A stretch of DNA of 62,083 bases, filler included, from Asterionella formosa (Eukaryota), in assembly GCA_002256025.1 (NCBI GenBank). It is 28 parts of 28 records of this genome, joined end to end, with 100 filler letters (N's around TTAATTAATTAA, not from the genome) between each part and the next. Parts side by side here need not be neighbours in the genome. Positions count along the whole stretch, not along the records: positions 11,151 to 13,281 come from NKIB01000370.1; 27 more parts are not named here. One strand, given 5' to 3'. The notes below the pieces were generated by a model. It was not told where the DNA came from. It was given only the letters and a program-made list of their open reading frames with translations, and made no database searches. Positions 1-62,083 of this stretch are shown in pieces. The position numbers and the translations under genes are program-made. The first letter of the stretch is position 1. Every line of letters begins with the position of its first letter.

Positions 1-1175
1 ACCAGGAGAAAGAATGTCTATTGGTATTAGCGGACCCTACGCAAAATCCGCTGTGGGAAATCAGTATTGGGTGATGGCCATGGACGATTATACAAGGAAA
101 CGCTGGAGTTATTTTATCAAGAAGAAAAGTGACTTTGGAACTGTCATTGAAGCGTTACTTACAAAACTTGCTGGTGCAGTACATAAGACTAAATTTGTCC
201 GATGTGATGACGCAGGTGAGAACTCCAAGCAACCAAAGAAAGTATGTGAAAACCAAGGTGTCAAGATGGAATTTACGGCACCTCATACTCCGCAGCACAA
301 TGGTGTTGTGGAAAGTGGTTTTGTTACAGTGCGTCAGAGAGCACTCGCTATAATGCTAAGTGCGAAGTTTCCAAATGAATATCAGGGGCTATTGTGGGCA
401 GAAGCGGTACATACTGCGACAAGATTGATGAACAGTACAGTGAATTCAGTGATTAAGAAGAGTCCCGATGATGTGTTCTATGGAGAAACGAATACAAAGC
501 GGCCCTACAAGCTCTACAGGCAATTTGGAGGTGTTGGATGGGTTACTATAAGAGAAGGTGTCAAGAAATTAGATGCATTTTCCATCAAGTGTGTCTTTTT
601 GGGATACTCAGATGACCACTCCCAAGATACATATTGCATGTATAATCACGAGACAAACAATACTGTGGTCAATACACCTGTCGTTAAGTGGAGTGAGTGG
701 CATGGGACAAATGTACCAACAGATAGACTAGAGAAAATGTTCAAACCAGTCACCAACCAACAGGATACGGAGATATCAGAACGAGAAGATAATGAAGAAT
801 CGCATGACGAGTTTTATGACGAGTTCGAAAGTCGAGAAGTGTCGGACAATGAAGATGAAGATGATGACAAGCAAGAATTGGGGAGGAAAACTGAACAATC
901 AACTAAGATAGATGGTACTACGAAAACTGAAGATACAGGTACCAATACCCCAATTGTGAAGACTAAACGTGCAGAAAGTGCTCAGTCTAAGCAAGCGAAA
1001 TTGGCATGTGAAATGCGAAGATTGGACTCATTGTTCAATCCTACGAGTGCAAAAATTGTGAAATTTTCAGGAGATACTGAGATGCCGTGTGTCATCGAGG
1101 AGGATGACGACATGAAAAGGAAGTTACGAAGAATACACAGCTGAATTTTTTGTACAATGCAAGTCTGCCTTCCCA
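1..1175 (+). mobile_element. Ty1/copia LTR retrotransposon fragment (integrase core and linker), truncated before RT
   Basis: ORF 14..1144 has rve motifs (GPY...YWVMAMDDYTRKRWSYF, VRCDDAGEN, FTAPHTPQHNGVVES, LWAEAV, KCVFLGYS). It frameshifts to NFLYNASLPS and similarity then stops. Confidence 0.92.
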
Positions 1176-2131
1176 CGGGCTGGCTCTCTCTTCACGTAGA
1201 CTCTTACGTGCTCGTAGTACTACCTAGTACCACTTACTTTCTCTCTTGTCTCTGCTTCTAGCCTTCCTGCTAGATAGACTCATTGACCTTCCTGTCAATT
1301 AACACACTGTTTCCTCTGTTGATAAGAATCTAAACTCAAATAAAATTATAAGCTAAACTAGCTAAATGTTTCCTTTCCATGCATCTTTGCTTCCCGCAAA
1401 GTCCTTCTAAGACTCTCTTCAAGTTTCCAGCATTTCCATGGAAATCTTCAATCTTTGATCTTGTTAGACAGCTGATTGACGTGGCAATGCAATATTCTAC
1501 TCGTTCGATTACAATCGAGTCCACAATCCTTGTGACTCGGGCTAAAATTCTTGACATTCTCATAGGTTGAATTGAATTTACTGGCCTGCTCCAGCAAGTT
1601 GCGGTCATTTTGCTTAAACTAACATTTTAATCTGGGAAAAAATAGCTAAATCTTTAGTTCCAGCAAAATTAACGCAACTTGCAGATTGGCTGGAGTACCC
1701 AGTCACATCTGAACTGCATGTATTACGGTACCGTAATTGGTAAAATTAAATCCAAGTTGTATTTTCCTTTAGCCCTCTGCTATGTGTCTACTCGGTCATT
1801 TTAATACTACTGGCATGGTATTGACCTGAAAATACAAGTGGAAGGACCGTGTTGTAACAGTGTTTCACTGCGGGTTTAATTTTTTGGTTTAATTAAACCA
1901 AAACTGTACTCACGATCATCGTAGGAATATACACTGTACGAGTACATATCAGATATTACACGGTAGCTACCAGGTACCACCTGGTATGGTACCAGGGCAC
2001 CGTACACAAAAATTAAACCCCATCCTCATTTATGTACCATTGGTACCTGGTACCTGGTACCAGGTATGGTACCATGGTACATGAATGAGGTATGCAGCAT
2101 CGGTAGACTACAGGTACTTCTTACCTGCAGG

Positions 2132-6011: not shown

Positions 6012-6695
6012 GGGGACGACTGGATTGTTGCTGGCCGATGTAGTGAACGCCACTACGCACTTTTAGGAGAGAAAGAAGAACGTCGTTGACCAGGTACCGA
6101 GGCAACGGTGGCCATGCAGGGAAAATTACTCATCATCAGTACCTGGTACCAGGTACCAGGTTCAAGCGAGGTACTGGTACCCGGTACTGTATTCCGGTAT
6201 GTAGATATAGTACGTCTGACAATCGAACAAAATATGCCAGGTAGTTGCTTATGGCTGCGAGAAGAATGTGAAAGAAGTCGTGGAAAGTGTCAGTGCAAAC
6301 AACCACCAAACGGGTGCAAACGGCTGATGGCTGTGTGCCTTTTTGGTGATACTCCGATTGCCCGTATGTATACTCCTTCCTCCAATACACGTACAACCGT
6401 ACCCGTATTTAGTTTACTACCGTGCTGGTAGTCCTACTGTACTCCGTACAGAGCAGTTTATACGATCGGTATCAGGTGTTGCTCATGCATACCAGGACAT
6501 AAATCGGCCTATTATATGCTCTGTCCATGGCGAAATCCAGAGGATGCATGAGCGACGACCCAAGAATGAAATACCGCATGCGTGGATTGCACANNNNNNN
6601 NNNNNNNNNNNNNNNNNNNNNNNNNNNNNNNNNNNNNTTAATTAATTAANNNNNNNNNNNNNNNNNNNNNNNNNNNNNNNNNNNNNNNNNNNNAC

Positions 6696-11150: not shown

Positions 11151-11402
11151 GTAGGACTGAAGCGCGTCCAGAAAGATACGCTCCTTTTCGGCTACTGTGA
11201 GACGAATGAGTTCCCCACTTTCCGGATCGACGACACAGTATTCCTCGTCAGGAATGCATTCTTCTTCCTGCAAGTTATTCTCAAAGAATCGTCCAGACTT
11301 GGCGTCGTAAGCGATTTCTCTCGTTCCGCTCGTAATGGTGATCTTTTCGTCGCTTCCTTCTTCGGCCATTAAAAGTGGACCAGCAACACGACCAGCTGTC
11401 AT
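11151..11402 (-). CDS. PGRL1: PGR5-like protein 1 (PGRL1) N-terminal fragment lacking a signal peptide
   Basis: EEYCVVDPESGELIRLTVAEKERIFLDALQSY. Near-identical to 45805.. on another contig. Confidence 0.75.
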
Positions 11403-11409
11403 CGTTGTC

Positions 11410-12206
11410 TTCCTTAAAGTTCGATGATCTTAAATTCATTTACCGGTACTGTCCCGCTGTAGTAGCAGCAGTCATAGACATATGTATATGGTGTTCTATT
11501 TATACAATCCTAAAACTATGATGATTTACTATGGTGTTCTATTGCTTGCTTATTACTCCGACTACCGGTACCGCTTTTCAGTTTCACGATCATACAATCC
11601 TAAAATTATGATGATTTACTGTCCCACTGTAATTGCAACAGTCATGAACATATGGTGTTCTATTTGTTTTTAGTTTTACGATCATTCGATCCTAAAACTA
11701 TGATGATTTACTGTCCCAATGTAATTGCAACACTCATTAACATATGGTGTTCTTTTGGTGTTTTTTACGATCATACGATCCTAAAACTATGATGATTTAC
11801 TGTCCCACTGCAGTAGCAACAGTCCTGAACATATGGTGTTCTGTTGCTAGTTTACTACTCTGACTACCCCCAGTATATCACTTACTACCTGCTACTGGCT
11901 GGTACTCTGTATATATATATGATATATTGTTATTGTCATATGATGTACCGGTACACAGCATGAAGAGCTCCCGCCCGAAAAAAGGGCTTAAACAATTTGC
12001 TACCAAAACCCTGGCGGCTATTTAACGGTCTAAATAATTAGTTTCAACGGACGTAGAAAATACCGGTACACGTACCGGTAGTCGTGGAAAACAATGGACA
12101 TATAGTGCATTGAGTATTTTCGAATTATGTATATGCGAGTATGATCATCTCAACCATATCAGATGTTCCATATCGAGAGCGCCTTTGAATTTTATAAATG
12201 TATAAC

Positions 12207-12237
<31 letters not shown>

Positions 12238-12911
12238 TTACAAATTTTATTTCTATATGCATGGCATACTTTTTTTTTCAAATCGTTCTGTCATGTTAAC
12301 AAACAATGCCTGCTTCTTCATGAAAAGATACATCGTCGTAAAGCACATCAAAAGAAAAGAAAATTTTCGCAATACATAACGAAAAACATTGTGACTTCGA
12401 CACATTACGCATTCGAAGGATGGAGAATGTTTAAGGTAATGAAGCCATCAATGTGGTAGCTACTTGGATGACAATCGTTGGGAGACAGGCAGCACAACAA
12501 CAAATTGTTAACTAAACGCAGCCACATTTCCTTTTTTCTCAGTTGATTAACAGCTCGTTTCGCTTGTTGGGGAGCACCAATGTAAAACAAAAACAAATTG
12601 CGTAAGTGCTCTTGTCCCTCGTTGGACCTCTTCACTTCTGTTGGAACAAAGCTGACAAAACGTTTACCTTCTCTCAAAGTTAAGATGACAAAAATGTACC
12701 GGTAAGTTTATTCGACAACATTGGATACCCGAAACTTACTTATTCAAGAATTTGGCTTACTGACAAGTTACTATTACAGACTTATGCATCAGTTGCATTG
12801 ATTTGTGGTAAGTGAAGCAAGAGGATACGATGGAATTGCGTGTCATTGTTTCAATGCAACATGACTACTTGCTAACAAATCATTCCTTCTCATTGTTTCT
12901 GTAACTGCATA
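11410..12911 (+). repeat. Dispersed AT-rich repeat family, copy A
   Basis: Collinear with 15640-17130, 24501-25000 and the reverse complement of 44463-45770. Confidence 0.9.
11440..11850 (+). repeat. Tandem ~90-96 bp minisatellite at the edge of a dispersed repeat family
   Basis: Core ATCATACRATCCTAAAAYTATGATGATTTACTGTCCC recurs at about 11500, 11589, 11681 and 11770. Confidence 0.85.
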
Positions 12912-13381
12912 GTTTGCTGCAATGTCAATTGAATCCTCGACTCAAATAAAAGAACTCTGCAATACAGTTGAATGGTGAGTGTGTTCTTGTTGTATACCTA
13001 AATGCTAGTATGGCTTGTCAGCTCACGCATTGTTGTTGACAACAGGCAGGGACAATGAGGTCCGGAATGAACTGTGTGTTGCTTTCTGCTGTTGCTAGTT
13101 CTATCATATACATTACTGACACACTGTTATTATGAAAATCTCTGCAGGTTAATGAAGAAGCAAGTCATTTCAAGGACAAGAAGGAAATCAGTGTGTGAGG
13201 ATGCATTCATGTTGCAACTTCGTAGAATGATGCCTCTTCAAGAATGAATAATTTCCCCCTTCTAAATGCATGGCTTCTCCTNNNNNNNNNNNNNNNNNNN
13301 NNNNNNNNNNNNNNNNNNNNNNNNNTTAATTAATTAANNNNNNNNNNNNNNNNNNNNNNNNNNNNNNNNNNNNNNNNNNNN

Positions 13382-18413: not shown

Positions 18414-19677
18414 ATCACAGCTCCCTATTTTGTGTTGCTGTTCTCAGGAATTTAAGCAAACACTTTGATAACAAGGCGATTAAAAAAAGAGGGAAGTTGG
18501 AACATCAATGAGAATCAGGCAGAAAAGAAAGAAAGAAAAGTGAACAAAGTACCAGTTGTCTTCAGCAATTTTTGTTTTTCCCTCTTGGCGAAAAAATTGC
18601 ATCAATTTGCAGCAACTCAAGTGCCAAGCAGCTTATTTTCAGGACAGATTACATCGAAAACATACCATTTTTCTTTTTTGAGGGTTGGCTTACTCAAAAA
18701 ATGCATTGAATTAGTTATTTAGATGTGAGTAAAAACTCGCAATCACTAATTAAATTATAAGCATCTAAATAAATTTCCAGAAACCAATTTAACATTTCTT
18801 GTCATTGACAATTTAATGTGCTGTAATTCTTTTGGTCCTCAAAGTCACTAGTATATAATTATTTAGTTATCATTTTGCAATTCTTTTGTACATTTAAAAC
18901 ACAAGAGAAGACAGGTTGTGGTTGTGAGCAGCTGGAGAATCCTTTATTATGTTGTTGCAACCTTGACCATGACGAAAATACAAATTATCTCCACGAAAAG
19001 TGAGAACAACGCTTTGCTACTTGTTATGGTACCTATATATTAAGAACGACATGGAAAATACAATCATAAAAGAAGTAAAGTATTAACACTAATAATGGCA
19101 ACGAAAATTGAGATCACCAATAACAACATAAAGTCGCATTTTTCTTGCGAGGTGAAGAACTCCCTCATTTTTCACACCACGGAAATAATTGTCATTTAAA
19201 ATACATCTTAGAAAAATGGTTGCTATGCTGTAGAACTCATGTAATTTACTTACCGGTAGGTCTGCCATCAGTATTGTAATCAGGGAAATCTCTTCGTTGT
19301 CCTGGCCTTGAGTAAAATCAGTCAAATTCAGTCACGGCAGTGTACATTGGGGGGTCCAGGACAATGAAGTACTCCGTATACGGTACCAGGTACAACGGGG
19401 CACATAAGATACCGGTATGGTGTTTCTTGAATGCCCTTCGGCACAGCACTTTTCATTCATCGGCGGTTTATACATACCGGTATAAAGATACATAAATCAT
19501 ACCAGTATCACAGGAATTGTTTCAACTTCGTTTTCTTTCTTAGCTATCGTCCGTTTCTCCACATCCTTTGTCCCCATCATTAACTTCGGAAAGGCTTCCC
19601 TTCCTTGTCATCTCCCCCTCTTGTTATTCTACAAAAGAACACCTTCGTATTAACTACATAGTAAGAACCCATCTGTC

Positions 19678-44462: not shown

Positions 44463-45770
44463 TTTGTTCCAACAGAAGTGAAAAGGTCCAACAAGCGACA
44501 AGAGCACTTACGCAATTTGGTTTTGTTTTACATTGGTGCTCCCCAACAAGCGAAACGAGCTGTTGAATCAACTGAGAAAAAAGGAAATGTGGCTGCGTTT
44601 AGTTAACAATTTGTTGTTGTCCTGCCTGCCTCCCAACGATTGTCATCCAAGTACCACATTGATGGCTTCATTACCTTAAATATTCTCCATCCTTCGAAGG
44701 CGCAATGTATCGAAATCACAATGTTTTTCGTGATGTATTGCGAAAACTTTCTTTTCTTGTCATGTGCTTTACTACAACGTATCTTTTCATGAAGCAGCAG
44801 GCATTCTTTGTTAACATGACAGAACGATTTCAAAAATATATATGCCATGTATATAGTAATAAAATTTGTAAATATATATATATATAAATATATATATATC
44901 AAGTGTTATACATTTATAAAATTCAAAGGCGCTCTCGATATGGAACATCTGATATGGTTGGGATGATCATACTCGCATTTACATAATTCGAAAATACTCA
45001 ATGCACCACATGTCCATTGTTTTCCACGACTACGTGTACCGGAATTGTTTCTGAAATTTGTTTGCATCGATATTTTCTACGTCCGTTGAAACTAATTATT
45101 TAGACCGTTCAATTGCCGCAAGGGTTTTGGTAGCAAATTGTTGAAGCCCCTTTTTTGGTTGGGAGCTCTTCATGTGTAACGGTACATCATACCGGTATGA
45201 CAATAACAATATATCATATATATATACAGAGCACCAGTAACAGGCAGTAAGTGATATACTGGGGGTAGTCGGAGTAGTAAACTAGCAACAGAACACCATA
45301 TGTTCAGGACTGTTGCTACTGTAGTGGGACAGTAAATCATCATAGTTTTAGAATCGTATGATCATAAAACTGAAATTTAAAAGAACACCATATGTTCATG
45401 ACTGTTGCAATTACAGTAGAACAGTAAATCATCATAGTTTTAGGATTGTATAATCGTAAAACTAAAATTAAATCGAAAACTTTATGTTCAGAATTGTTGT
45501 TACCATAGCTTACTGCAGTGGAACAGTAAATCATCATAGTTTTAGGATTGTATGATCATAAAACTGAAAAGCACTAGTCGGAGTAATCAGCAAGCAACAG
45601 AACACCATAGTAAATCATCATAGTTTTAGGATTGTATGATCGTGAAACTGAAAAGCGGTACCGGTAGTCGGAGTAATAAGCAAGCAATAGAACACCATAT
45701 GTCTATGACTGCTGCTACTACAGCGGGACAGTAAATGAATTTAAGATCATCGAACTTTAAGGAAGACAAC
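44463..45770 (-). repeat. Dispersed AT-rich repeat family, copy D (reverse complement of copy A, tandem units 45290-45735)
   Basis: Collinear in reverse with 11410-12650, including the junction to PGRL1. Confidence 0.9.
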
Positions 45771-45804: not shown

Positions 45805-46578
45805 ATGGCCGAAGAAGGAAGCGACGAAAAGATCACCATTATGAGCGGAACGAGAGAAATCGCTTACAACGCCAAGTCTGGACGATTCTTTGAGACTAAC
45901 TTGCAGGAAGAAGAATGCATTCCTGACGAGGAATACTGTGTCGTCGATCCGGAAAGTGGGGAACTCATTCGTCTCACAGTAGCCGAAAAGGAGCATATCT
46001 TTCTGGACGCGCTTCAGTCCTACTATGCCACTGGAAGGCAAGCTCAAGGATGACGAGTTTGACCTATTGAAGGAAGATTTGCAATGGAATGGATCTGACA
46101 TGGTTGTCATAAAGCGAAAGGAAGCCACATATCTCGCCGCCATGCAGGCATACTTGAAAGGTGAACCGATGATGCCAGATGCTGAGTTTGACGCATTGAA
46201 GACGGAGCTCAAGGAAACTGGATCGAAGTTTGCAGTCTCAACATCTCCAAAATGCTAGATCGACACTGGAATTTGCACTGTCACATTGAAAGAAGACCAA
46301 TGCAGATCAAATCTTCTCTACCTTCCCGCCATTATTGTTCTCACAAGTGTTTGGCTTGGTATTGGTTTCGAACTCTTGTCGACTGTGTTGAGAATCAACC
46401 CGTTGTTCTTCCTCCTCATTGGCACTCCGTTCCTCTACACCGGATCTAAATTTATTACAGAGGAGATTCTCTTCCCTGGTAAATTCATTGCTTTCGGGCC
46501 TTGCCCCAGCTGTGAAGTTGAGAACCGCGTCTACTTTGGAAAGATCTTGGGTGTGGAGGGTTTCACTGACATTGCTAA
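45805..46578 (+). pseudogene. PGRL1: PGRL1 pseudogene (5'-truncated, frameshift near 46040, TAG at 46256-46258)
   Basis: FLDALQSYY, EFDLLKEDLQWNGS, MQAYLKGEPMMPDAEFDALK, PKC, a TM region and GPCPSCEVENRVYFG occur in successive frames. Confidence 0.85.
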
Positions 46579-46678: not shown

Positions 46679-47682
46679 TTTTTTTTCAGAACACACCATT
46701 TTGTCTGAAGAAGACCAAATGCCATTTCTATTCTTATCCTTAGCTGTGAAAGGAAAAAGTTAAATGTATCCTGTGTTGGATCATCACGTTGTGAGCCAAC
46801 AAAGGGAACAAGCATTACATCAGACAATGTGTAAGCTGCATCGCCGACCAGATAAAAACCTGTGTTGAATGCTGCAACTTGATCGAAAATGGAAGTTTTT
46901 TCAAAAGCTACTTGGTCACTGCATTTTCCCGGTGCAATTACACCAAAATAAATAAATCTTGAGTCAGCATCACAAACAGCCTGGACATTGATTCCATAAG
47001 TCATGTAGTGACCGGAAAAAAATGAACCAGGGTTGTTGCCACTTTCAACTATAGTCGGGCGGTTGATGGTGGCAAGGAAGCCGTCAATAGCACCAACACA
47101 TCCTCTCATCACGCCCTCTGAGCTTTTGCATTCAAAGCTGGAAGCCAATTTGATAAATTCTTCTTTTTCTTTTGGAAAAATAATTTCGAGTTCTTCACAG
47201 TTTAGTACAGCATCAATGAACAAATCACGACATCGATAAAGTGAAGCAATGCTACAACCGTAGGCATGACGAATGTCGATGTACCTGCCACCAGCCAGCC
47301 ATCGCAAACCAATGGCTACCACAATTTCGGGAATTATGGGCTCAGAAGTGCCACATTTGGAATAATTCCCTGCAATCTGAATTTCCAGCATGGAGGTGAG
47401 TTTTTTGAATGCTCTGTGTGACATTCTGTATGTCTTCTCGAAAGCAATCTCGTGATTGAGTTTCTCGACATGTGATTGCCAGGAGATTCTTTCGTGGTGC
47501 CACTTGTGCCTTCGTTGTCGTCGTCGTTCAGATGACTGAAGCTGCCGTTTACAGCGTCGCCTTTGTCGTTTGGATGAGTGTTCTTTTTCCTCTGCTTCCT
47601 TAGTTAAATGACAGAGGAAGAAGAAATCAAGATCACTACTGTCATCGTCATTATCATCAAGTAAATCAAATGGCGACGACAT
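46679..47682 (-). mobile_element. PIF/Harbinger (HARBI1-like, DDE_Tnp_4) transposase, 3' partial
   Basis: FEKTYRMS..AF, GLRWLAGG, GCVGAIDG, INVQAVCD, GKCSD, LVGDAAY and FNFFLSQLRIRIEMAFGLL motifs. Confidence 0.93.
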
Positions 47683-48459
47683 GATTCATGCAAATGTGTG
47701 TTTTTAATATTATATTTAGTTTCCCGGTAATTATATTTTGTTGTTGCTTGATATCAAGACCATCATTATATTCTGGAGGGATATACACATGATCTTCGCC
47801 AGCCTGTTGCCGTTGAAGATTCATTTTACTCCATGATACAATGTGATCACAAATTAGTGATACAGTGACACTTTTGGAATGAATGAAATTCAGTTCAAAT
47901 CGAGTTACCGTTGCTGATACATTTTCAAAAAAATTCAAATTCCGTGATACACGAAAAAAAATGATAAGAACGACCCTAAGTCATAAAGATTGTTGCATAG
48001 CGGTGGCTTACAGTGCATATTTTTCTATCCATACATGAATATATTTTCCCCCCAAACCGTGATTATTTTTACTACGTTTATAGTACAGAAGCTATTTTCG
48101 TATTACTTTACCTTTTTTGCGCGATGCAGTATGCTTTTGGCGCTTGCATCATCAACGAATTCTTCTGATGCATAATGTATTCGAAAGCATTATGACGTCG
48201 TACACACATTTAATTATACGAAATTAATTCAATGGGAAGAATATTAAGGTTCCTGCATTTGAACCCCTAGCTCGAGGTAGGGTTAAAAAACAAATGTTAA
48301 GTCAGAGTAGTCAAACATAGACTTCTTACGAGTAAAATGTATATGTATATCGCTAAACGGAGCTTTCACCAATACACACCCTTTCCACATGCTTAAATAC
48401 AGTCATTTATCAAAGTAGGGGTATAGGTCAACGCTATATATCGTCAGGATATAGGATCT

Positions 48460-49477: not shown

Positions 49478-50733
49478 ATCACAGCTCCCTATTTTGTGTT
49501 GCTGTCCTCATACCGAATTCAAGCAAACACTTTGATAGCATGGCAATTCAAAATGAAAGGTGGAACATCAATGAGAATCAGGCAGAAAAGAAAAAAGAAA
49601 GTGAACAAAGTACTGGCTGTCTTGAGCAATTTTTTGTTACTATTGCATCATTTTGCAGCAACTCAAGTGCCAAGCAGCTTATTTTCAGGATGGATTACAT
49701 AGAAGATATACCATTTTCCTATGTGAAGGTTGGCTTACTCGAAAAAATGCATTTTTATTAGTTATTTAGATGTGAGTAAAACTTGCAATCACTAATTAAA
49801 TTATTAGCATCTAAATAAATTACTAGAAACCAATTTAACATTTCTTGTCATTGACAATTTAATGTGTTGTAATTCTTTTGGTCCTCATAGTCACTAGTAT
49901 ATAATTATTTAGTTATCATGTTGCAATTCTTTTGTACATTTAAAACACAAGAGAAGACAGGTTGTGGTTGTGAGCAGCTGGAGAATCCTTTATTATGTTG
50001 TTGCAACCTTGACCATGACGAAAATACAAATTATCTCCACGAAAAGTGAGAACGACGCTTTGCTACTTGTTATGGTACCTATATATTAAGAACGACATGG
50101 AAAATACAATCATAAAAGAAGTAAAGTATTTACACTAATAATGGCAACGAAAATTGAGATCACCAATAACAACATAAAGTCGCATTTTTCTTGAGAGGTG
50201 AAGAACTCCCTCATTTTTCACACCATGGAAATAATTGTCATTTAATTCATCTTAGAAAAATGTTTGCTATCCTCTAGAACTCATGAAATCTACTTATGTC
50301 TACCATCAGTATTAATTAGGGAAATCTCTTCGTTGTCCTGGCCTTTAGTAAAATCAGTCAAATTCAGTCACGGCAGTGTACATTGGGGGGTCCAGGACAA
50401 TGAAGTACTCCGAACACGGTACCAGGTTTGTCTCCGATGTACCAGGTACCTGGTACATAAGATAGTGTTTCTTGAATGCCCTTCGGCACAGGACTTTTCA
50501 TTCATCGGCGGTTTATACATAAATATATATGAATACGATATATATACCGGTATCACAGGAATTGTTTCAACTGCGTTTTCTTTCTTAAATTAGCTATCGT
50601 CTGTGTCCGTTTCTCCACATCTTTTGTCCCCATCATTAACTTCGGAAAGGCTTCCCTTCCTTGTAATCTCCCCCTCTTGTTATTCTACAAAAGAACACCT
50701 TCGTGTTAACTACATAGTAAGAACCCATCTGTC

Positions 50734-54068: not shown

Positions 54069-54589
54069 GTTGATATTTAGTTTAATTTTTTACTTCAATC
54101 CCATTTCATACCATGTTGTATCGTGGTAGAATTTCTTGGACAATACCATGGCATACTGCAGGGTTCCATTGGTCCGTTGGTAGAATATTCTACCAAAATG
54201 TGAAAAAAAATTCTACCCCCAGTACTACTGGGTAGAATTTTTGCCTTTGTCTATACCATATTTTTCACCACGGTCAAGCAAGGGCGGGGTACCGGACAGT
54301 ATTGACCTGTCCAGAGTAGAACACTACCGGAGCCCTACAGAAAAATACTACTTTGGTAGAATTTCGTCAATAATGTCATGGTAGTAGTGAGAAGATACTC
54401 ACAACCAACAATGGGCATGGGCCATGACAGGTCATCTTGAATACCGGTAGGCTGTTTCTTCATAAGATAGTCGTATTAATACGGGGATGTAGAGTACATA
54501 CTGTATATATTTATGATCCATAATGTCCCATTCATGATAAACGATGTCCAATTATTCTTGCTGGTGGTTTCTCATGTGCCGGTTCTAGA

Positions 54590-54940
54590 TGTAGTACCTG
54601 GTACCAGGTACTGTAAATACCCACTACGTAGTTCTATGTACCCCTTGTACCAGGTATCTGGTACTACCACCGGTAGACTATGCCGTTGAGTTCGCATTGG
54701 TTGTAATAATTTGTATTCCCTTGTTGTTAGGTACCGGTACCAGGTACCGGTATTTATGATCATAATGGTACCTGGTACCAGGTACCCCGGAAATCCGGTA
54801 CCAGTGGTACTAGGTACTCCAGTATACTATAAGTAAACGCCGTACAATACCAGGTACCAGTACTGGTATGTACCATTTGGGTAAACTCTACTGTACAGTA
54901 CCTGGTACCAGGTTCCATCCTGTGCTTTAAGTACCAGTAT
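54590..54940. repeat. Dense array of TACC(W)GGTA / GGTACC palindromic micro-repeats
   Basis: Example: TACCGGTACCAGGTACCGGTA at 54732-54752. Similar arrays occur at 1965-2130 and 6090-6200. Confidence 0.85.
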
Positions 54941-59869: not shown

Positions 59870-60345
59870 NNNNNNNNNNNNNNNNNNNNNNNNNNNNNNN
59901 NNNNNNNNNNNNNTTAATTAATTAANNNNNNNNNNNNNNNNNNNNNNNNNNNNNNNNNNNNNNNNNNNNAAATGCGCCATTGGCTATTTCAATTTTCGTT
60001 GTCCATATTAGTGTTATTACAAACCATTCTTTTATGATTATTTTTTCTTTATCGTCCTTAATATATGTACCTAATAGCAAAGCGTCATTCTTAAAATAAT
60101 TGCATCTCAGCAAATTGCAGGAATTGAACTACCGTAAAACCTGGTGTCTCGTATCCCACAGATACCTGTACCCCCCTTTGTACATCTGGCGCAACACTCC
60201 CAACTATTTCCTGTGTACAGAAAAAATAACACAACATAAACGTATTCTATTTATTGTTATGTATTTTCGTATATTACCGGTACCCTACTGTTTCCGGTAA
60301 AGTATCATCACCTGTAAAATATCGTCACATATACCGGTTGGCAAC

Positions 60346-60738
60346 ATGATAATTGCGGACGACATTCGTGATGGCGAAATCCTTGGCCTCAGAGGTACCA
60401 CCAATGGAAGAAGCTGTGAGCAGCATGCCTGCTGTGGGGCAATTGTGAGGCCGAATGATTGTGTTCGGTTCAAGGCAGCAGTGGTCCCGATTGATGGAGT
60501 TGATCAGGCAGGTATCAAGGCTGTTCTGATCCTTGATGGGACGGAACTTTGCACGGTTGGTTTCCTTGGCAAGAATATTGCAGCTTTGAAGAAAACAAGT
60601 GACAAGTTTGTCAACAAGTTTGCTCAAGTTATTGAACTCTATGACTCTAGTGAAAATGCTGCCAAAAGGGCAAAAAGCCACAATAACCTTGGAGTTTGTT
60701 CATTCCGGCTTCTTGAGGACATCCAGATTCAGGAATAG
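60346..60738 (+). CDS. Small HIRAN-like protein with GRSCEQHxCCG Cys/His motif
   Basis: Intact 130-aa ORF with the pattern ILG...GRSCEQHACCG...VRF...AGIKAV...C.VGFL. Convergent with the transposase. Confidence 0.6.
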   Translation: MIIADDIRDGEILGLRGTTNGRSCEQHACCGAIVRPNDCVRFKAAVVPIDGVDQAGIKAVLILDGTELCTVGFLGKNIAALKKTSDKFVNKFAQVIELYDSSENAAKRAKSHNNLGVCSFRLLEDIQIQE

Positions 60739-60977
60739 ATGTTATGAAAACTGGACAAGCCTTTGAATACTTCAACCAATCTACACTAGAATGTTAATAA
60801 TAGTATTAGAAATTAGCATTTTCAGCATTAGAATCACTCCGTTTTGGGTTTTTTGTAGTCATCAGCTTAATTTATTTGCCTATTAGGAAATGCCATCCTG
60901 AATCTAATTGACGATAATGATTGTTTCACTAAAACTAAATGTTAAAATAGATAATCAAATAATCCAATCCTTATTGA

Positions 60978-62083
60978 CTAGTCAACATCAGCAAAGCCCT
61001 CATATCCAATGCTCTTCCAGGTATTGGTGATTGTTTGAATTGAGACTCTAGCCCATGCCATCTCTACCCATTGTGCAATGTGGTGCCTTTGCACCTTGGG
61101 ATTATCCACATTGGCAACCATGTAGTCTTCCCAATATCCTCTCATGTAGTCCTTGAAGGGCTTATTAACTCCTACATCCAACACTTGAAGTCTAGATGTG
61201 TAGCCTGGGAGGACGAAATCAATCTCAGTGCCGCAATTTTTAATTGCATCAACACAACGTCCTACCTTGTGGACAGTAAAATCATCCATAAGAAGGTGAG
61301 TAGGCTCACCGCCTTTTCCCAACGCAAATGGTTGCCAAACTTTTTCGATCCATTGTAAAAATATGTCTGTATCAACCCAAGCTTTGGGTTGACAAGCGTA
61401 TTTAATACTGACCGGAAAAAGTTGTTGATTGTTGTCTAGTAATCCCAATTGCCTGGAAATACGTCCATCCCTTGTTCCTGTAAATACAATGAATGGTGGC
61501 AACTTCTCACCACTCATTGTCACCCCTAACAACACAGTGCAACGATTCGAATTTCCTGTTGTTCGAAGCCCAATGGTCCTTTCGCCTCGGGTTGCCAAAG
61601 TCTTTGATCCAAACATGTCAAAATTGATGTTTGTCTCATCAATATTGACAATGTTTCCAGCAGGAAATTCGAACGCAGCAATTTGATTGTTGACGTAGGA
61701 AACAAAATCTTGAATTGTCTCCTGATCCAGCCTTGTATTTTGGGCGACACGAGTCACACGCCTAATGACAATGTCCTCACGGGCAAGCCAGCGCTTGATC
61801 CGTTTTTCAAGTGCCTTCAGCGACACATTTTCGTTCCCAGGTTGCCTCTTAAGCTCAACACTGAGCATCCTGGTGGTGCAGGCCCTATCTTGAAGCCGCA
61901 ACTGGTCAAAAAGAGTCTTCAATCCTTCGAAATCAGCAGCACTTTTTGGAGAGCGGCCCGGGTGAGCGATTTTTTTCATCAACACCTGCCTCTGAATCAC
62001 ACCTTCTTCCTGCAGAGGAATCTCCGCCACCTCCGCCGGAACCACAACCATTGCACCATCCAGCATGGACTTCCAGCTCCGGA
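60978..62083 (-). mobile_element. pogo-like (DDE_1) transposase, 5' partial; putative terminus TA|CCGTAAAAC at 60130-60140
   Basis: IVNIDET, RCTVLLG...GEKLPPFIVF, AWVD...W, LLMDDFTVH and GYTSRLQVLDVGVNKPFK motifs in an uninterrupted frame. Confidence 0.93.

Follow-up and report, generated by a model that had tools for sequence, protein, structure and literature searches.

The stretch of DNA analysed here (the window, positions 1-62083) consists of 28 contigs of 2,131-2,114 bp each, sorted by length. Each joint between contigs is made of 44 N, TTAATTAATTAA and a further 44 N, and these N44-TTAATTAATTAA-N44 spacers explain the 58 TTAATTAA words in the window. The content is of eukaryote type, with Pfam matches to DUF6824, PPR repeats, an FkbM methyltransferase, an MFS transporter and an S28 peptidase, together with a copia-like integrase, a Harbinger-type DDE_Tnp_4 and a pogo-type DDE_1. 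The top named relatives of the S28 peptidase are diatoms (Cylindrotheca, Nitzschia, Seminavis, Mayamaea and Pseudo-nitzschia; 44-53% identity), and contig 6 is matched by 18 run rows from 11 studies, namely an algae metagenome (0.95 of words; possibly the source) and freshwater, lake and river metagenomes. The source of the window is a freshwater diatom-like alga, available as a fragmentary assembly. Besides the pogo-type element described below, the window holds other mobile elements, a Harbinger-type DDE_Tnp_4 transposase at 46681-47685 (minus strand) and a copia-like integrase fragment at 2-1144 (plus strand). In total, the data comprise ~69 kb, of which ~59 kb are window contigs and 9.4 kb are related contigs from public assemblies.

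The most conspicuous word in this DNA is the palindromic octamer TACCGGTA, or TA-CCGG-TA. It occurs 24 times in the window, where 0.18 would be expected on the basis of 100 dinucleotide shuffles (the largest shuffled count was 2, and 0/100 reached 24), and under an order-2 Markov model it is the top enriched 8-mer other than homopolymers, at 56-fold. The hexamer ACCGGT is observed 32 times in the window where 6.56 are expected. TACCWGGTA occurs 19 times, ~41-fold above expectation, and in TACC-N-GGTA words the centre base is A or T 19 times, C or G twice. That TACCGGTA would have enriched CCWGG companions had been predicted in an initial annotation of this DNA, and the prediction is borne out by the individual counts (TACCAGGTA 11 and TACCTGGTA 8, versus TACCCGGTA 2 and TACCGGGTA 0). 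In a survey of TA-X-TA words, TACCGGTA and TACCWGGTA were prominent, besides AT-rich simple repeats and words from a tandem repeat in contig 6. One or both motifs are found in 15 of the 28 contigs, and intact units number ~43 per 59 kb, with decayed units extra; this density comes from 2.1-kb contigs, likely a repeat-biased sample, and may overstate the genome average. Length variants of TACCGGTA are few beside its 24 exact copies. TACCGTA/TACGGTA, which by analogy with Sleeping Beauty would be the product of full overlap, is only 2.3-fold enriched, and several such words are element ends. Runs of at least eight G or C are ~87-fold enriched (21 eight-letter G words, both strands counted, over the whole window).

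According to the initial annotation, there are seven sites at which one of two homologous copies has a TA and the other has TACCGGTA. The copies are members of repeat families; they are not neighbouring loci, being separate contigs joined by spacers. For polarity and INDEPENDENCE, contigs 6, 8 and 21 provide three copies of one repeat family. One public run (X1) has 197,227 short pieces that match contig 6 at 88% identity or more, a depth that does not equal copy number but suggests that contig 6, like contigs 8, 12 and 21, belongs to a repeat family that is large and diverse. Four public runs were used for contig 6 (window 11151-13281), all made up of short assembled contigs of about 80-300 letters. 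Contig 6 contains a tandem repeat of ~92 bp (11500-11850), and in contig 21, its homologue, the short ORFs at 45805-46258 match no Pfam family. The sites that bear on the origin of the motif are as follows.

11441..11448, no strand: TACCGGTA in contig 6 only; TA alone in contigs 21 (45733) and 8; clean 6-bp gain.
11563..11570, no strand: TACCGGTA, also at 45659; contig 8 (15721) and other tandem units lack it.
11946..11953, no strand: TACCGGTA; an older site common to three contigs, decayed to TACCGGGA in contig 8 and to TACCGTTA in contig 21.
12061..12080, no strand: two TACCGGTA units; a 28-bp TA-to-TA deletion adjoins the first, and the second is that at 12073.
12073: TACCGGTA, clean 6-bp gain versus 45033; in contig 6 only, none in contig 8.
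19251..19258, no strand: TACCGGTA in contig 9; TA alone in contig 23 (50297); 6 bp plus one adjacent substitution.
45190..45197, no strand: TACCGGTA in contig 21 only; TA alone at 11939 and 16135; clean 6-bp gain.

Three of the seven listed sites (11441, 45190 and 12073) are therefore clean, and two are clean apart from one substitution, namely 19251 and 11563, the latter having gained 6 bp with one substitution in its pairwise alignment with 15721. The remaining two are less clean, as had been stated from the outset; 19410 and 50465 differ by 8 bp (CCGGTATG), and the flanks of 19475 and 50522 are diverged in pairwise alignment. In all five clean or near-clean gains CCGG is flanked by a duplicated TA, and the empty copies carry a single TA. 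Since the inserts at 11441, 45190 and 12073 are each private to one of three copies, they are best read as derived insertions; deletion would demand two identical, precise losses at each site. The three-copy comparison thus favours the earlier claim that these are gains and not deletions, and it agrees with the further claim that the inserts fall on different copies, with 11441 and 12073 private to contig 6 and 45190 private to contig 21. The CCGG was also said to be mostly untemplated by the flank, and no local template is present at 11441, 45190 or 19251. The 6 bp at 12072 are missing in two contigs of another public run (X2). The ~28-bp deletion reported at 12061, which had been taken to yield the motif there, is real, but the motif is probably the older of the two: in the loose-end consensus from three runs, copies read ...GTACCGGTACAC or ...ATACCGGTACAC at this place, from which it follows that the motif was probably present before the deletion, which spans one TA to the TA of the footprint. 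In nine pairwise alignments, 6 of the 23 indel rows of 5 bp or more contain one or other motif, corresponding to 5 of 21 distinct events, a count that leaves out two gains split by the aligner into 3+3 and 4+2.

A TA|CCG terminus beside a pogo transposase at 60130 had been proposed as the matching element end. Scanning public metagenome contigs with the 20 bases that follow this TA returned five loci, three of which (L001, L002 and L003) contain the same element. The other two (L004 and L005) were rejected as element copies, as they are chance matches in unrelated sequence (8.4 kb in all, with 0 TACCGGTA). The element in the window has these parts.

60132..62083, plus strand: pogo-type element with left end CCGTAAAACCTGGTG... 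after TA (60130-60131); runs off the contig; 97.7% identical to L001 75-2028.
60978..62081, minus strand: pogo transposase (DDE_1), its N-terminus past the contig end; the full 408-aa form lies at L001 920-2146.
60346..60738, plus strand: second ORF of the element, 130 aa, conserved, convergent, without a Pfam family; L001 288-680.

The left end reads TA|CCGTAAAACC at 4/4 insertion sites (window, L001, L002 and L003), and the sequence before the TA is unrelated from site to site; that four independent sites diverge exactly at this point identifies the terminus at 60130 as a true element end. The whole element is present in L001 (81-2516; 2,436 bp), where terminal inverted repeats at 81-106 and 2491-2516 are 96% identical over 26 nt; the copy in L002 has an internal deletion. 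TA stands on the left side in 4/4 copies, and CA, not TA, lies next to the sole right end seen (L001). Beside the element in L001 (2517-2560), the flank appears ~30 bp shorter than in contigs 6, 8 and 21, which looks like a flank deletion. A second pogo end was looked for in the window, and none was found. The 14-nt palindrome at 1721-1734 looks as if a right tip and a left tip of pogo type met across one TA, which may be chance or may reflect two truncated ends with a common TA.

The transposase matches DDE_1 (PF03184) at 81.9 bits in the 408-aa L001 protein and at 80.9 bits in the window fragment (cut-off 22). At the N-terminus, residues 11-66 score 22.2 bits with HTH_Tnp_1, for which the cut-off is 24.1, and 17.3 bits with BrkDBD, for which it is 23.4, in both cases below the cut-off, and candidate catalytic motifs picked by eye are IDET (187), MDDF (306) and LDVG (342). 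Viral contigs yielded no pogo transposase. Relatives of the 130-aa ORF number 57; they are similar in length, reach down to 41% identity and are all metagenomic. C24, H27, C30 and C69 are invariant in a 9-member alignment, and the product of the ORF is possibly a zinc-binding accessory protein. A second, shorter family has ends of the same kind.

L003 3688-4335: 648-bp MITE with CCG...CGG ends, flanked by TA left and right; its inverted repeat, perfect over 28 nt, begins CCGTATAC.
18795..19383, minus strand: member of the CCG-ended MITE family that lacks the left inverted repeat; right end CCGTATACGG... next to TA 19384-19385; paralogue at 49841-50419.

L002 and two window contigs, 9 (19383) and 23 (50419), also carry ends of this family. 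The family is short, has perfect inverted repeats and a target duplication, and occurs in several copies; we judge it non-coding from its size. As read from their termini, therefore, there appear to be at least two families, one pogo and one MITE, with CCG...CGG ends and TA duplication, the one pogo right flank seen being CA. The inverted repeats of both contain runs of six or seven C. A general search for TA-flanked inverted repeats found the L003 MITE and the L001 pogo element and nothing else, and a window search for TA-CC...GG-TA pairs with inverted repeats found only stacks matching stacks. The MITE end has 0 matches in the viral genome collection and 0 in the prokaryote genome collection.

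Element ends and motif are physically associated. The CC(G)/(C)GG of the footprint corresponds to the terminal bases of the pogo and MITE ends, and the pogo copy in L003 is inserted at the TA of a TACCGGTA. Three of eight independent element ends adjoin a footprint unit through a common TA, compared with 55 of 4,151 TAs (1.3%; P about 1e-4); the eight comprise the left ends of four pogo copies and four MITE ends, paralogues 19385/50421 being counted once and the CA-flanked right end of L001 excluded. A unit-rich stretch that is hypervariable from copy to copy is the site of 2/4 pogo insertions and of all MITE right ends. Two further units lie inside the pogo element itself.

60275..60282, no strand: TACCGGTA within the pogo element, common to the window, L001 and L002 copies.
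60332..60339, no strand: decayed footprint TACCGGTT inside the window pogo copy; the same place has TACCGGTA in L002 and TA only in L001.

That pogo copies differ by TA or TACCGGTA at this place adds another independent gain, this one inside a transposon. The site that the pogo element occupies in L001 is empty in contigs 6, 8 and 21. In the ~69 kb, sites in three states (empty, filled and footprint) were looked for and only two-state sites were found, the counterparts of filled sites being empty wherever they could be read; the joints and loose ends of short assembled contigs on contig 6 gave no readable element-filled site, and the window pogo flank, compared with MITE copies in search of an empty site, gave no clean alignment.

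The units also occur in stacks, with nine stacks of two or more units in the window and a mixed stack in L003 (CTGG, CCAGG, CCAGG and CCGG units). The main stacks and hot spots in the window are listed here.

2044..2079, no strand: five-unit stack in which CCTGG, CCTGG, CCAGG, TGG and CCATGG follow one another, each between TAs.
6140..6186, no strand: stacks TACCTGGTACCAGGTA and TACTGGTACCCGGTA.
19384..19482, no strand: hot spot beside the MITE end, with TACCAGGTA (19384) and TACCGGTA (19410, 19475); the units in contig 23 differ (50440-50455, 50545).
54442..54940, no strand: densest hot spot, with 3 TACCGGTA and 9 TACCWGGTA; mixed array TACCGGTACCAGGTACCGGTA at 54732-54752.

With arrays collapsed, G precedes the outer TA in 19/24 half-flanks at CCWGG loci and in 15/44 at CCGG loci, on a background of 25%. 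Since their target contexts differ, the two classes point to a second agent; the CCWGG class favours G-TA-C contexts, which suggests that it derives from a second element. TACCWGGTA is probably the same kind of scar, written by another element that is absent from the data. Repeated termini after TA|CCWGG or GTAC|CAG were sought in the window and in L001-L003, and no element with ends giving CCWGG was found there; nor do the data include any clean gain of CCWGG together with the matching empty site. Read as TA + CCWGG + TA, the word would require CCA/CCT ends, or CC ends and one added A. An equally good parse, GTAC + C(A/T)G + GTAC, would call for an element with CAG ends that targets 4 bp; we know of no rule in this superfamily for a 4-bp palindromic GTAC target. 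Repair of the very-short-patch type at CCWGG was rejected as a source, because it gives substitutions and not insertions with a duplicated TA.

The position of the units in the genome and their condition are also informative. Only 2 of 43 motif sites in the window lie in ORFs of 120 aa or longer, which cover 47% of bases; for TACCGGTA alone the figure is 1/24, compared with 33% of TAs (P 9e-4). As TACCGGTA contains no stop codon in any frame, this scarcity in ORFs indicates avoidance or removal, as expected of insertions. The commonest one-letter neighbours of TACCGGTA are those produced by CpG transition, TACTGGTA (7) and TACCAGTA (6), the other 22 neighbours occurring 0-3 times, and one CpG-transition pair is seen directly between copies (19498 versus 50545). 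The presence of CpG-decayed neighbours implies that the scars are of varied ages.

During excision in this superfamily, the non-transferred strand is known to be cut 2-3 nt within the element, and the 3' overhangs left by this cut are end-joined into a dominant canonical footprint. We infer excision here, and consider it likely that TACCGGTA represents the excision footprints of TA-targeting pogo-type transposons with CCG...CGG ends and of their MITEs. The initial annotation had arrived at the same reading, the excision of CCG-ended pogo elements, and it draws support from the element ends, the MITE, the three-copy polarity, the recurrence in other assemblies and the excess of CCWGG. On insertion, the target TA would be duplicated; excision by the transposase would leave both flanks with 3' overhangs made up of the outermost 2-3 bases of the element; and end joining would then produce TA-CCGG-TA, either by annealing of CCG with CCG through CG and a 1-nt fill-in, or by direct joining of CC to GG. 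TACCGGTA would result equally from a stagger of 3 nt followed by CG annealing and from one of 2 nt followed by plain joining, the stagger and the repair route being what we infer. Because every footprint has two TAs, later insertion and excision at the same place would stack units into arrays, and the scars would gather in non-coding DNA and then decay at CpG. A hairpin (P-nucleotide) origin was rejected by reasoning, as a TA-ended flank would give TATA and not TACCGGTA.

Several other explanations have to be weighed against excision. Replication slippage could have expanded founder motifs or chance GGTACC words as 6- or 7-bp repeats (GGTACC, GGTACCW), so that many copies would not be separate transposon events, and it would account for the concentration of TACCWGGTA in stacks, for the nine stacks of at least two units and for the G that precedes TA in 32/38 half-flanks when arrays are left uncollapsed. 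We consider it improbable as the general origin, given that it leaves the first unit at an unrelated TA unexplained, that CCGG is untemplated locally at 11441, 45190 and 19251, and that 21/24 TACCGGTA lie outside pure CCGG/CCWGG arrays (21 singletons, with the two-unit array 12061-12080 and one mixed array making up the rest). Unlike units within one stack (CCTGG, CCAGG, TGG, CCATGG and CCGG) argue in the same direction. Slippage may add units within arrays, and would explain at most such extra copies. The trivial possibility that the units are linker or adapter remnants from library construction or assembly is suggested by the very short contigs of a metagenome-type assembly, and can be all but dismissed: motifs and elements recur in other public assemblies (L001-L003), the stretch is found in the 18 run rows from 11 studies, and TACCGGTA is absent from the unrelated L004 and L005.

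The units might also be functional palindromes, with TACCGGTA and TACCWGGTA serving as dimeric transcription factor sites or methylation-related signals under selection in non-coding DNA; their palindromic form, their non-coding location (2/43 in ORFs) and their strong over-representation are what such sites would show. Selection, however, offers no account of why exactly 6 bp are gained at a TA that is duplicated every time, nor do the irregular stacking, the CpG decay without sign of constraint, and the appearance of motifs as insertions in repeat copies and within a transposon fit this view, which we regard as very improbable. We give an equally low probability to a process other than excision, such as a TA-site nuclease with templated repair, or abortive integration that leaves element tips behind. 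The great uniformity of the footprint (24 exact copies, few length variants) would suit such a motif writer, but uniform canonical footprints are the norm for this superfamily, and CCG-ended, TA-duplicating elements exist and are physically associated with the motif. The HIP1-like motif-writing process offered as a fallback in the initial annotation, to which this rival corresponds, is not needed.

If excision is the correct explanation, the diatom genome would bear the mutational signature of one transposon family in the form of thousands of 6-7 bp insertions at TA, mostly non-coding, and these would be a direct record of cut-and-paste activity and of its repair route, by end joining and not by copying from the homologue, in a group whose transposon biology is little studied. 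The scars would supply regulatory and indel variation as well as short palindromic arrays, and motif density would be a marker for contigs of this diatom in freshwater metagenomes. The intact 408-aa transposase, the defined ends and the matching MITE would together make a candidate tool for diatom genetics. More tentatively, and as a possibility that we would not yet favour, footprints may themselves be preferred new targets (the TA in GGTACC), so that cycles of insertion and excision seed and lengthen irregular (GGTACC/GGTACCW)n arrays; scars would then be a leading class of insertions of at least 5 bp genome-wide, and CCWGG would be written by an unseen element with either CAG ends and a GTAC target or an unusual 5-nt cut. 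Were footprints preferred in this way, transposons would drive the birth of microsatellite-like hot spots.

In the accessible portions of the literature searched, the motif words returned only primers and barcodes, queries on diatom transposon excision footprints returned only an unrelated Kolobok transposon lineage, and no report of footprint-rich genomes, footprint arrays or comparable over-representation was found. Footprints of Tc1/mariner elements, including Sleeping Beauty, Tc1/Tc3 and mariner, have a duplicated TA that encloses a few terminal bases, with a dominant product formed through annealing of 3' overhangs. The diatom scars are alike in having a duplicated TA with a few terminal element bases between, and unlike in that the end bases are CCG and not CAG, that the scars are among the top over-represented words, and that they form arrays. 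With CCG rather than CAG ends, the favoured product would be 4 bp (CCGG), with a 2-nt overlap, and not 3 bp. HIP1 of cyanobacteria is a palindromic octamer present far above its expected frequency, and to our knowledge it lies in genes too and has not been described as an insertion with duplicated TA flanks. TACCGGTA is likewise an over-frequent palindromic octamer, but it lies in ORFs in only one of its 24 copies (vs 33% of TAs) and arises as a 6-bp gain.

Closer relatives are found within the pogo superfamily. Passer, a transposon of this superfamily, left footprints of 0-4 bp in cell assays, according to the accessible part of the report (PMC9976928). The diatom element resembles such transposons in its DDE_1 transposase, its inverted repeats and its TA target (left side), and differs in that it has ~50% identity or less to any named relative, that it carries a second conserved ORF of 130 aa, and that its activity is a prediction. 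In Arabidopsis, the autonomous pogo-like element Lemi1 and the MITE Emigrant have common end sequences, and empty Emigrant sites with extra bases matching the element ends were interpreted as excision footprints, as set out in the accessible text (PMC1636448). Two such empty sites are reported there for Arabidopsis (PMC1636448), as against dozens per 60 kb in the diatom, where footprints appear to be re-used as targets. The mechanism is of a textbook kind, and the pogo and MITE families are new members of established groups; the scale of the scarring, the re-use of scars and the arrays are unusual.
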